From contig JAIUNT010000001.1 in NCBI GenBank assembly GCA_020161545.1, positions 25,471 through 89,470 of the forward strand: 64,000 bases of DNA, in the 5' to 3' direction. Numbering within the stretch: position 1 is the first letter of the stretch; every line of letters starts with the position of its first letter. Source of the DNA: Pseudomonadota bacterium (GTDB taxonomy: Bacteria > Pseudomonadota > Alphaproteobacteria > Caedimonadales > UBA1908). This document shows, piece by piece, positions 19,615 through 22,439 of the stretch. Position numbers and translations under genes: made by a program. The notes under the pieces are model-generated. The model saw only the letters and a program-made list of their open reading frames with translations, searched no databases and was not told where the DNA came from.

Positions 19615-20526
19615 CTAAAGCCCAGGCAGTTCCACCGTAGCAGCGTGCGCGCCCCTGCCTTGAATACAGACAAAAAACTGCCCTCCAAGTGTGATGGAAA
19701 CACCGTGGGACGCCTCAAGGCTTTGACACAAGACAGGCGTGTCCTTGCTTCGACAATAGACGTTGCCTATTATTTTCAAAAACCGCGGACGGAGTCTGCC
19801 CAGAAAATATTCACAAAACGCCTCCCCACACTCAGTAATATCCAGGTGCGCCAGCGTGAGCGTTTCAAAACCCCGCTGGTTCAAGCACCCCACCATGTCT
19901 GGTGTCAGGCGCATTTTGACGGAGAACTCTGGGTCCTGTGACAAATCATAAAGTCCTAGGTTACGCACCTGGGGCGCCGTTTTGAGGATTTTGAGCGCGC
20001 GGCAAACCTGGCCTTCGTTGGTGGAGATGAGGATGTTGTAAAGGTTCAGGGACCTAAATGTGTAACACTTTTGAAAAGCCTCAAGAAAATCAGCGTGCTG
20101 TAAGAGCACTGCAAAGACTTCAATGTCCAAGCCAAGCTCTTTAAGACGCGCAGGCCCTTTCGTGCCACGTAGGTGGTGGACGAGGGCAGGTTTGAGGCGC
20201 TTTTCATCACACATCACACCAAGGTTGAGACTTTCTAAACACGGATGATCTTGAACGCGGCGGACCAAAATCCCTTCAAAGGCACCTAGGTGCGCCCTTT
20301 GCGCTTCAATATCTCCTGCAAAACGGCTCCGGGCATCCTCATTAAGATGCTCCATGACCGCTTTGAAATCCCTTTGACGAAAGTCCACCTCCCGGGAGTC
20401 ATAGCGTATGTACGCCGCCGCAAGGCCATGGGCGAAATCACAGGGGGTGGTCTCTACTTCATCGGCGCTCGCCTGGCACTGGGACAGGATCACCACGGAA
20501 AGAAAAACAAGGTGCGTCAAGGGCAT
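19615..20526 (-). CDS. secreted hypothetical protein, paralog family 2 (copy a), degenerate RNI-like LRR
   Basis: Signal peptide MPLTHLVFLSVVILSQCQASA. The core LGLDIEVFAVLLQHADFLEAFQK...LNLYN...VCRALKIL...LGLYDLS...GEAFCEYF is collinear with copy b. Confidence 0.75.
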   Translation of the reverse strand: MPLTHLVFLSVVILSQCQASADEVETTPCDFAHGLAAAYIRYDSREVDFRQRDFKAVMEHLNEDARSRFAGDIEAQRAHLGAFEGILVRRVQDHPCLESLNLGVMCDEKRLKPALVHHLRGTKGPARLKELGLDIEVFAVLLQHADFLEAFQKCYTFRSLNLYNILISTNEGQVCRALKILKTAPQVRNLGLYDLSQDPEFSVKMRLTPDMVGCLNQRGFETLTLAHLDITECGEAFCEYFLGRLRPRFLKIIGNVYCRSKDTPVLCQSLEASHGVSITLGGQFFVCIQGRGAHAATVELPGL

Positions 20527-20553
20527 TTTGTGATCCTTGCGACGGCGCCCTCG

Positions 20554-21465
20554 CTAATTACGCGCGTAAGGGTCACCAAAGGGATACTGCACGTAAAACG
20601 CGCGTTTTATGTGAAGGGCAGCTCTATCTTGACCCTTAATGGCCAGATTGATGCGCCCATGGCTTCGGGCATCACAGTACATATCTGTGCGCACCCAAAT
20701 GTCTCGTGGATGGCCGGCTTTTGTCAGATAATCGCAAAAGGCCTCGCCTGACCCACGCACATCCAATGTATCAAAGATTAACGTGTCCACCTTGCACCGA
20801 GAAAGAGCCTGTACCATACGGGGGGTCATTTGCAATTTTTCAATGCCGCCCTGGGACAAAGGAACCTCATAAAGCCCGAGACTGCTAACGCCAGGCATAC
20901 ATGACACAATCTCCAAAAGGGAACATACTTTGTCCTCGTCCACGCGGGTGCGCACGTTATAGAGTCTGACGGCGCTCAGGGAGGCGGATCCCCGAAACGC
21001 CTCATAAAAGCCAGGGTCCTGCAGCAACTTTGTAAAATCATGGATATCGAGCCCTAGTGCCCTGACCATTGACGTGCCGGCAATGCCTGTCAGTTTCTTT
21101 GTCAAGGCAGCAGCGTAAACGTGATGGGTCCCCTCGGGCATACGAAAGGAAAGACCCACGCATTCCAAATGCGCATGGGTTGAAAGCAGTGACGCCATGT
21201 GCCCGTGCAGCTCCCCCTGGTTCTGGTGTTGCTCGTCCCACTCTTTGCAGGCCAAATGAGCGTGCCGTAAGAAAGAGCGCTCGGCCAGCTTCATGGCGTC
21301 AGCGCCCACGCACACATCCACGCCGTTGTGACCGACAAGGGCCCTTGCAAGACCAACGGACACAACATCCTCCACCGGGTCGTCACCGCACGCCGTGGGG
21401 ACAGCACTGGCAAACGCCGTGCACGGAAGGACGAGAAAAAAAGAGAGTAAAATTGCATAGTTCAT
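20554..21465 (-). CDS. secreted hypothetical protein, paralog family 2 (copy b)
   Basis: The start is set at ATG 21465, giving signal peptide MNYAILLSFFLVLPCTAFASA. The core is LGLDIHDFTKLLQDPGFYEAFRG...VRLYN...VCSLLEIV...LGLYEVP...GEAFCDYL. Confidence 0.75.
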   Translation of the reverse strand: MNYAILLSFFLVLPCTAFASAVPTACGDDPVEDVVSVGLARALVGHNGVDVCVGADAMKLAERSFLRHAHLACKEWDEQHQNQGELHGHMASLLSTHAHLECVGLSFRMPEGTHHVYAAALTKKLTGIAGTSMVRALGLDIHDFTKLLQDPGFYEAFRGSASLSAVRLYNVRTRVDEDKVCSLLEIVSCMPGVSSLGLYEVPLSQGGIEKLQMTPRMVQALSRCKVDTLIFDTLDVRGSGEAFCDYLTKAGHPRDIWVRTDMYCDARSHGRINLAIKGQDRAALHIKRAFYVQYPFGDPYARN

Positions 21466-21605
21466 AGCGTACACGGGCCATAAGACAAAATGAGACAATG
21501 TCCAGACGCAGCACCCATGTCAACCAAATTCGACAATATGACAAGTCCCTTGCGGGGATTGAACGGTGTTACAGGGCGCGCCCCGCTCTCTAGGATAACG
21601 CCCTT

Positions 21606-22439
21606 TTATAGGGACTGCGTGCGGGCATTCACAGCATCACACAACGGGTATAACCTGCTCTGAATTGCGGGCAGCGTCGCGTGAAGCTGGAGATGTTGTA
21701 GGGACGTGTTGCCCATGAGTGCGTCGCTTAGGATAGCGCCGTAGTCATCACACCACTGGAAAATATCCCAGATAATGAGAGTGCGCAGGCCCTTGTTTTG
21801 CTTTAAATAGGCCGCAAAGCACATAAGGGACGTTTCCTTGTCAAAGACGCCGCGCATACACAAGGTGTGAAGATGTGGCCAGCGCGCCAGTACGTAGGGA
21901 TAGTCACAGGTTATATAGAGGGGCAGCGCATAGGAAAAATCAAGGGACACGACATCCTCTAGACGACACAAATCTTCCCAAGACTTATAGGCCCGGGTGC
22001 CGTAAAAGCGCAGCCTTAAGGCGTGCGCTTTTTTGAGCGCCTTGGCAAAGTCCTCGTGCTTGAGAAGCGTCTCAAGGGTTTGGGCACTCACACCAAGGGA
22101 GCAAAACCCATGCCTTGCCCCCTCCCGGCGCAAATGGGCCGTCAGGCCAGTGGCCAACGCCTCTTCTTCTTGGGGGCTCCAACCCTCAAGATCCGTGTGG
22201 AACCCACCAAGGGGCCTATCGACGCCAAGGTGCGCCAGCGCCTCAAGACGGTAGGCGCGCAACTCATTTGGGGACAGCTGCTCAAAATTGATGCGGCAGC
22301 TCATTTGCACGTCCACGTACCCATGCATCAGGTGTATTTCCGGTTCCTCGTGGCTTGCCAAAACCGACGCGCTTAACAAAACGAGAGGTGCGAGAAAACG
22401 GTGTAAAGACACCAGCGCAGATATGATACGGGAGTACAT
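21606..22439 (-). CDS. secreted hypothetical protein, paralog family 2 (copy c, divergent)
   Basis: Signal-like N-terminus MYSRIISALVSLHRFLAPLVLLSASVLAS. It has LGVSAQTLETLLKHEDFAKALKK and an RNI-LRR-like end YLKQNKGLRTLIIW....GAILSDALMGNTSLQHLQLHA. Confidence 0.7.
   Translation of the reverse strand: MYSRIISALVSLHRFLAPLVLLSASVLASHEEPEIHLMHGYVDVQMSCRINFEQLSPNELRAYRLEALAHLGVDRPLGGFHTDLEGWSPQEEEALATGLTAHLRREGARHGFCSLGVSAQTLETLLKHEDFAKALKKAHALRLRFYGTRAYKSWEDLCRLEDVVSLDFSYALPLYITCDYPYVLARWPHLHTLCMRGVFDKETSLMCFAAYLKQNKGLRTLIIWDIFQWCDDYGAILSDALMGNTSLQHLQLHATLPAIQSRLYPLCDAVNARTQSL

Follow-up and report, generated by a model that had tools for sequence, protein, structure and literature searches.

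A family of putative exported, ribonuclease-inhibitor-like leucine-rich repeat proteins in an uncultured alphaproteobacterial lineage

A family of four related genes

The genes discussed here, called a to d, encode four related hypothetical proteins that may represent an exported and highly divergent branch of the leucine-rich repeat (LRR) proteins. They lie on the minus strand of a 64,000-nucleotide stretch of DNA, hereafter the window, taken from an uncultured alphaproteobacterium (assembly GCA_020161545.1, contig JAIUNT010000001.1, positions 25,471 to 89,470). Three of them stand in tandem, and the fourth is found elsewhere in the window:

19615..20526, minus strand: member a (LCH26_00210), 303 amino acids, a/b subfamily; signal-peptide-like N-terminus, helical cap and about seven irregular beta/alpha LRR-like units, as read from the open reading frame (ORF) and the AlphaFold model
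20554..21465, minus strand: member b, 303 amino acids from the ATG, a/b subfamily
21606..22439, minus strand: member c, 277 amino acids, c/d subfamily
61464..62525, minus strand: member d, 353 amino acids, c/d subfamily; dispersed copy, 40 kb from the trio

This arrangement had been given in a preliminary description made from the sequence alone, and all the motifs quoted there are found in the translations. Protein a is identical in sequence to the NCBI entry P0001, [quoted passage not shown] (MAG, metagenome-assembled genome). For member b, a start at the ATG at 21465 rather than at the TTG at 21498 is backed by the orthologs, which begin with the same methionine. Member d is flanked by a tRNA U5-methyltransferase-like gene and an AlkA-like gene.

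The conserved core motif reads LGLDIEVFAVLLQHADFLEAF in a, LGLDIHDFTKLLQDPGFYEAF in b, LGVSAQTLETLLKHEDFAKALKK in c and LGLPDFLWGPLLENKDFLAAIQK in d. Members a and b also share a series of paired motifs (LNLYN/VRLYN, VCRALKI/VCSLLEI, LGLYD/LGLYE and GEAFCEY/GEAFCDY). The C-terminus of c holds about two recognisable LRR units of the ribonuclease-inhibitor (RI, or RNI) type, FAAYLKQNKGLRTLIIW...GAILSDALMGNTSLQHLQLHA; C-terminal units of this kind had been assigned to both c and d, and they are present in both. (Conserved disulfides were considered and rejected, since the cysteines of VC..L and GEAFC are not kept in the family members P0006, P0008 and P0010.)

That a to d form one paralogous family, as had been proposed, is borne out by pairwise comparison. 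BLASTP aligns a with b at E=6e-30 (26% identity over 297 residues), c with d at E=1e-15 (32% identity over 177 residues) and a with c at E=6e-6, the last spanning the 'LG(L/V)....LL...DF..A' core. The weakest pairs, b-c (0.02) and b-d (0.3), are bridged by profiles: in hhalign, the a/b and c/d subfamily alignments match one another with 96% probability and E=1.2e-9, with homology across the core, whereas both score ~0.2 against an unrelated Fmt alignment that served as a control. A hidden Markov model (HMM) of a to d, run on the six-frame ORFs of the window, recovers exactly four members (d at 4e-87) and no fifth. Judged by these comparisons, the four genes are true paralogs, with a similarity far above chance.

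Relationship to leucine-rich repeat proteins

What kind of proteins are these? An exhaustive HMMER search, run with a six-sequence family profile (A2) and without a word filter against 1.84 billion representative proteins, returned 49 matches. About 12 of these are further family members, that is, signal-peptide-bearing proteins of ~200-350 amino acids matched in a single stretch. The remaining matches are long proteins with 3-8 stretches each, aligned via profile positions ~186-280, so that the LRR_6 signal of the profile lies in its C-terminal half, which is of the c/d type. Seven of nine multi-repeat matches scanned against Pfam are LRR_6 proteins, with E-values from 4e-13 to 5e-81. One protein, P0009, is matched by the family profile at E=1.3e-13 in eight stretches and by Pfam LRR_6 at 5e-81, with 11 LRR_6 repeats; another, P0012, consists of NACHT plus LRR. 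The family-wide profile is in this way significantly similar to bona fide LRR_6 proteins. A sequence profile search of the PDB likewise gave only LRR proteins as its top four (COI1 at 0.006, LRRC34 twice and a kinetoplastid LRR protein; E-values 0.006-0.045). The c/d-only profile scores up to 39 bits on LRR_6 proteins and reaches E=3e-4 in hhalign against the family of gene e, the LRR gene that neighbours the trio, and protein c weakly matches the ortholog of gene e (34% over 64 amino acids, E=0.025).

The AlphaFold model of a, built with a 14-sequence alignment, has a mean predicted local distance difference test score (pLDDT) of 84.5 and a predicted template modelling (TM) score, pTM, of 0.81. 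It shows a helical N-terminal cap and then a beta/alpha solenoid of seven units. Strands are placed at residues 46-49, 99-102, 130-134, 159-165, 189-194, 222-225, 249-252 and 277-280, with a helix after each; the seven from 99-102 onwards (SLNL, LGLD, LNLYN, LGLYD, LTLA, LKII and ITLG) are spaced 27-33 residues apart, a pitch that fits the RI-like class. Strands of the LxxLxL type can be read in a at SLNL 99, LGL 131, LNL 159, LGL 190, LTL 223, LKI 250 and ITL 278. In the predicted model, the solenoid is curved, with the parallel beta-sheet on the concave side and the helices on the convex side. The 'collinear core' of the preliminary description runs from strand LGL through helices to strand L.LYN, and would therefore be the best-conserved LRR unit. 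A distant metagenomic relative of 409 amino acids, P0025, carries the core 'L..LGL....L..LL.......L..N..L..L.L(Y/R)G' three times in one chain, which backs the reading of the conserved core as the repeat unit itself.

When the model of a is compared with the PDB by Foldseek, NLRP14 comes first (E=3.5e-4, probability 1.0), followed by the Legionella protein LegL1, chicken RNase inhibitor and RanGAP, at ~3e-3 and with probabilities of 0.97-1.0; many NLR, LRRC34, CARMIL, TIR1 and D3 chains are found among the further neighbours. In the model of d, for which the alignment was shallow, strands and helices alternate, and the Foldseek neighbours are trypanosome LRR proteins, DRC5, leiomodin/tropomodulin, NOD2, NLRPs, RanGAP and RNase inhibitor. 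Models and profiles together support the assignment of a to d as probable degenerate RI-like LRR proteins. In the case of a and b, the label derives from the predicted fold and from homology to c and d, rather than from direct sequence similarity.

Putative export signals

The three tandem proteins had been described as carrying a signal peptide and as secreted. A signal-peptide-like N-terminus is present in all four, and 'secreted' can be taken no further than that N-terminus. All 20 family members, from several organisms, have a hydrophobic core inside the first ~30 residues, with no acidic residue ahead of its end in any of them and with a small-residue (AxA-type) site after it. The putative cleavage sites are ...SQCQASA|DE in a, ...CTAFASA|VP in b, ...SASVLA|S in c and ...LTLNAQA|F in d. 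Members that are otherwise 25-40% identical have all kept such N-termini. Export was judged by the mean Kyte-Doolittle hydropathy over 10 amino acids (1.4-3.5 among the members) plus small residues at positions -3/-1. Gene e and GCS2 have no such hydrophobic core, but the heuristic is weak and separates the family from its neighbours only partly, because the cytoplasmic neighbours def, epimerase and PlsX also score 2.05-2.23. (A lipoprotein reading was rejected, as direct reading of the sequences revealed no lipobox.) The N-terminal helix of a has a pLDDT below 50 in the AlphaFold model. Export of a to d is thus predicted from signal-peptide-like N-termini, which do not specify the compartment, be it periplasm, surface or medium.

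Distribution, selection and copy-number turnover

As far as the searches reach, members of the family occur only within a single lineage of uncultured alphaproteobacteria. A word-indexed protein search matched only a itself and two c orthologs, and when 185,579 species-representative genomes were searched with the c/d alignment, the only detectable relative was a MAG labelled Ca. Puniceispirillum sp. (GCA_013822015.1, contig PNJU01000001; locus L001). In this PNJU01 MAG the trio recurs in the same setting, with orthologs that are 87-93% identical and unchanged in length. Orthologs of b are 91-95% identical, and those of c include P0002 and P0003. Beyond the organism's own clade, no sequence shares more than 64% identity with its Fmt, and those relatives that have names belong to scattered Rhodospirillales-like taxa.

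Between the window's genome and the PNJU01 MAG, the ratio of nonsynonymous to synonymous substitution rates (dN/dS, by the Nei-Gojobori method) is 0.18 for a, 0.29 for b and 0.20 for c. Among the flanking genes, def, fmt, plsX, the LON-substrate-binding-domain gene and the epimerase gene give 0-0.10, GCS2 0.17 and GNAT 0.165. The trio is therefore under purifying selection, relaxed by comparison with most of the flanking housekeeping genes.

The number and order of copies differ between relatives. In a metagenomic relative whose Fmt is 78% identical (L004), four tandem members occupy the syntenic site (181-4242, plus strand), upstream of an epimerase-LON_substr_bdg-Trm112-def-fmt-truA block, as in the window; these are two b-like members, an a-ortholog and a d-like member, an order unlike that of the window. 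Another relative has two tandem d-like members adjoining gap-tkt (L012, 185-2494, plus strand). The organism that supplied the window has a fifth, d-like copy on another contig (L009, 9545-10585, plus strand), adjoining gap and with flagellar basal-body genes nearby. This copy has an in-frame TGA inside its '...EG(K/Q)*KGLRALG' core (EGQ*KGLRALGV), present in three independent sources (ENA, JGI and NCBI), and its NCBI annotation, LCH26_01625, covers only the 194-amino-acid C-terminal part. Given these differences in copy number and order, and the stop-bearing copy, the family evolves by gene birth and death. Each genome holds some 4-6 copies, spread over at least three loci.

Genomic neighbourhood

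The trio points the same way as the housekeeping block that lies downstream of it, with gaps of 27, 140 and 85 bp. On its other side lie the following features:

22440..22608, no strand: non-coding spacer of 169 bp and 30% GC, between c and the divergent LRR gene
22609..22857, plus strand: detached F-box-like N-terminal part (LPRPVMTHLVSFLDDASLF), which shares 8 nt with the start of gene e (ATG at 22850) in a different reading frame
22850..23737, plus strand: gene e (LCH26_00230), a bona fide RI-like LRR gene without a signal peptide

The region between c and gene e had been described as an A/T-rich stretch of 400 bp. This holds for the 169 bp of the spacer; the other 241 bp, with 50% GC, correspond to the ORF at 22609-22857. 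The spacer is likely to be a divergent promoter region. It contains no consensus sigma-70 site, and a scan for promoters and terminators did no better than on shuffled sequence.

Gene e matches Pfam LRR_6 at 1.5e-11 and the ribonuclease inhibitor in the PDB at 4e-29, and stands outside the a-d family by sequence (E=0.55 with the family HMM). A protein search with it found only itself and its ortholog. It evolves fast, with 70% identity between the two MAGs and a dN/dS of 0.30. A frame change with the 8-nt overlap separates the ORF at 22609-22857 from gene e (ATGGGTGA). That ORF is homologous to residues 122-156 of an intact 463-amino-acid gene in the PNJU01 MAG (L001, 7294-8685), and the ORF and gene e taken together are collinear with this F-box-like plus LRR_6 paralog. 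The intact gene scores 1.9e-4 and 21.5 bits for F-box-like, which is below the cut-off of 24.3, and 1.7e-16 for LRR_6. The same split of gene e is found in the PNJU01 MAG (77 + 290 amino acids). It could mean that the gene is a pseudogene, that two genes are coupled or that the frameshift is programmed.

Other orphan genes lie in the window. A second tandem array on the plus strand consists of five mutually paralogous orphans (9693-10820, 10979-12070, 12067-13086, 13261-14325 and 14383-15333) of 316-375 amino acids each, related at BLASTP E-values of 1e-17 to 6e-122, without a Pfam match and with signal-peptide-like N-termini ending in ...APAFAS. The truA-fmt-def block is bordered by this array on one side and by the a/b/c array on the other, and similar-sized genes without a Pfam match occupy the same place in related contigs. 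An orphan of 1097 amino acids (6227-9520, minus strand), which has a clear signal peptide (MRRFKKILYSSLFGSLLLTASSYGA) and no Pfam match, sits where the GC content of the window is lowest (45-47%), adjoining a secreted subtilase gene (4065-5936); its C-terminal ~250 amino acids look LRR-like by eye (LEKLSI, LKTLSL, LKILEI). Two further minus-strand genes without a Pfam match encode a protein of 520 amino acids whose many hydrophobic segments make it a probable polytopic membrane protein (28584-30146), and one of 421 amino acids with an internal signal-peptide-like segment (33085-34350).

Comparison with known systems

The RI-like LRRs, exemplified by RNase inhibitor, RanGAP and the LRR domains of NLRs, are the best structural neighbours of the a-d models. 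They have in common with a to d the predicted solenoid, a pitch of ~28-33 residues, the match of the family profile to LRR_6 repeats and, in c and d, C-terminal units that fit the consensus L..aL..N..L..L.L. On the other hand, a to d fall below the Pfam LRR_6 threshold, have only 6-7 units with irregular repeats (18-35 amino acids), a mostly absent Asn/Cys ladder and no detected internal periodicity, and carry a putative N-terminal Sec-type signal in place of a cytosolic location. By their predicted fold, they belong to the RI-like LRR class, within which they form a new, divergent and lineage-specific family.

Bacteria are already known to have LRR proteins of this eukaryote-like class, among them LegL1 (4xa9), the second-best structural match of a, Ralstonia GALA F-box-LRR proteins and the NEX1/PEX1 F-box/BTB-LRR expansions of Parachlamydiaceae (PMC4209131). 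Like a to d, the bacterial LRR effectors form paralogous, partly tandem families under purifying selection, and an F-box-like plus LRR_6 gene adjoins the trio. Unlike a to d, the LegL1, GALA and NEX1/PEX1 effectors have no Sec signal, are delivered by type III or type IV secretion systems, usually have an F-box, BTB or U-box domain and may number dozens of copies; a to d have a putative signal peptide and no accessory or catalytic domain (Pfam gave no F-box match in any of the four), and theirs is a far smaller family, of 4-5 copies. Tandem expansions of LRR/F-box genes under purifying selection are known in amoeba symbionts (PMC4209131). The preliminary description had found the family notable because RNI-type LRRs are mainly eukaryotic. 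That was overstated, since LegL1, a GALA protein (9j7j) and a Bacteroides protein (2ra8) are among the matches and the expansions in amoeba symbionts are on record; for the same reasons, the family is best regarded as a divergent addition to a known class.

The Imm-LRR proteins (PMC3482391) offer another comparison. These, too, are small LRR proteins in variable arrays with a presumed tight-binding role. The a-d array, in contrast, is made up of a single family in a housekeeping context, and in the examined loci there is no adjacent toxin or toxin-export gene and no linkage to polymorphic toxins or heterogeneous immunity genes.

Weighing the explanations

The explanation preferred here, which we hold to be rather better than an even bet, is that a to d are an exported, lineage-specific family of irregular RI-type LRR binding proteins in which copies are gained and lost. 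Each protein (~280-350 amino acids) would have a Sec-type signal peptide, a short helical N-terminal cap and an irregular LRR solenoid of 6-7 beta-strand/alpha-helix units of 18-35 residues, of the ribonuclease-inhibitor type. The conserved 'L..LGL....F..LL....F..A(F/L)...' would be one such unit, consisting of an LxxLxL strand and its helix. Presumably, the proteins are exported across the inner membrane and act as non-enzymatic protein-binding modules in the periplasm, at the surface or outside the cell, and the paralogs may have diverged to hold different partners on the concave beta-sheet face. Their ancestor may have been an RI-like LRR gene of the kind found next to the trio, which acquired a signal peptide and whose canonical repeat motif was lost afterwards.

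Several observations weigh against this explanation. Pfam and NCBIfam give no LRR or other meaningful match for a to d or for any of 14 members, the best Pfam LRR score being LRR_4 at E=0.21 in a single member and none rising above a gathering threshold; in the same scan, gene e, the positive control, was found as LRR_6 at 1.5e-11. The a/b-only profile does not exceed 21 bits with LRR_6 proteins and gives E=0.19 against the family of gene e, which is the control level, and an hhalign self-comparison of the family found no significant off-diagonal match, that is, no internal repeat. The RNI-type relationship put forward in the preliminary description thus stands on the family profile, the PDB search and the predicted fold, and does not extend to the curated models or to the a/b profile taken alone. 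The Foldseek statistics are modest (E-values of 1e-4 to 1e-2, TM-scores of ~0.4), a few non-LRR beta/alpha proteins, TIM-barrel-like, appear among the neighbours of a, and the model of d is of low confidence (pLDDT 57). As for export, the signal peptides were judged by a crude heuristic, a and b are without K/R in the n-region, and no secretion system was seen near the a-d genes. The idea of a eukaryotic partner has its own difficulties: nothing shows a eukaryotic host for the organism, and it has genes for the flagellar basal body, electron transfer flavoprotein (ETF), polyhydroxybutyrate (PHB) depolymerase and central metabolism, and with these it does not look like an obviously reduced endosymbiont.

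Could the proteins not be LRR proteins at all? They might be an exported alpha/beta family, with an envelope or structural role, for example, whose matches reflect generic leucine-rich periodicity and convergent C-terminal units in c and d. The silence of the curated models, the missing a/b and internal repeat signals and the mixed fold-search results all suit this view, as does the fact that the Asn/Cys at repeat position 9/10, when the sequences are read directly, is mostly absent from the family. It is given little credence, however, because the best LRR match of the family-wide profile, a protein with 11 LRR_6 repeats, has E=1e-13 and is followed by dozens more LRR proteins; a/b and c/d are homologous over the core (E=1e-9); the two independent models, of a and d, have RI-like LRRs as nearly all their top neighbours, with probability ~1.0; and a strand spacing of 27-33 residues is that of the RI-like class. 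The suggestion that the trio and d arose as duplicates of the neighbouring LRR gene and are decaying into pseudogenes, now without function, seems very improbable. One member elsewhere in the genome does have an in-frame stop, the neighbour is split from its F-box-like part, and the repeats are degenerate. However, all four ORFs are intact, their orthologs in two to three other assemblies are identical in length, the dN/dS values are 0.18-0.29, and signal peptides are kept even in distant members.

An unlikely alternative, to be taken somewhat more seriously, is that a to d are periplasmic inhibitors or immunity proteins, encoded by an orphan 'polyimmunity' locus of the Imm-LRR type that would neutralise a periplasm-acting toxin or enzyme, either of competitors or of the bacterium's own making. 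RI-like LRRs are classic tight-binding inhibitors (the ribonuclease inhibitor clamps RNases), LRR immunity proteins have been described in heterogeneous polyimmunity loci (PMC3482391), and here diverged small proteins with putative export signals are encoded in tandem, in a copy number that varies between relatives, within a window that also encodes a secreted subtilase (4065-5936). Against this, Pfam records contain no toxin and no domain of contact-dependent inhibition (CDI), Rhs or type V or VI secretion (T5SS, T6SS) within ±10 kb in the related loci (L001, L004, L005/L006, L009, L011 and L012), an absence that is not proven, because several of the neighbours have no Pfam match of any kind. 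Nor is the array a heterogeneous mix of immunity genes, being of a single family; its orthologs are syntenic one to one beside housekeeping genes and under moderate purifying selection, and the neighbouring F-box-like LRR gene suggests a eukaryotic rather than a bacterial target.

Implications

If a to d are, as preferred here, exported LRR binding proteins, what might they bind? Proteins of a eukaryotic host or prey are favoured, as a tentative choice that falls short of an even chance, because of the F-box-like plus LRR neighbour, the other exported orphan families and the precedent of the amoeba symbionts. A more specific proposal, for which the chances look slim, is that an F-box-LRR-type effector gene was duplicated, gained a Sec signal and diversified, placing eukaryote-type binding surfaces outside the cytoplasm of a protist-interacting lineage. 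If that were true, the exported LRRs could serve as decoys or inhibitors of extracellular or phagosomal RNases or proteases of the host or prey. It would also mean that a 'eukaryote-like' effector scaffold had switched compartment in a flagellated, non-reduced alphaproteobacterium and, together with the array at 9693-15333, would mark a previously unrecognised protist-interacting lineage.

More generally, 'hypothetical proteins' that are missed by the curated profile libraries gain a probable fold and a probable mode of action. Should the partners be eukaryotic, the exported LRR array, the F-box-like LRR gene and the second orphan array would flag the lineage as host- or prey-associated. Beyond that, the family extends by one small step a catalogue of bacterial LRR proteins that is already large and diverse.

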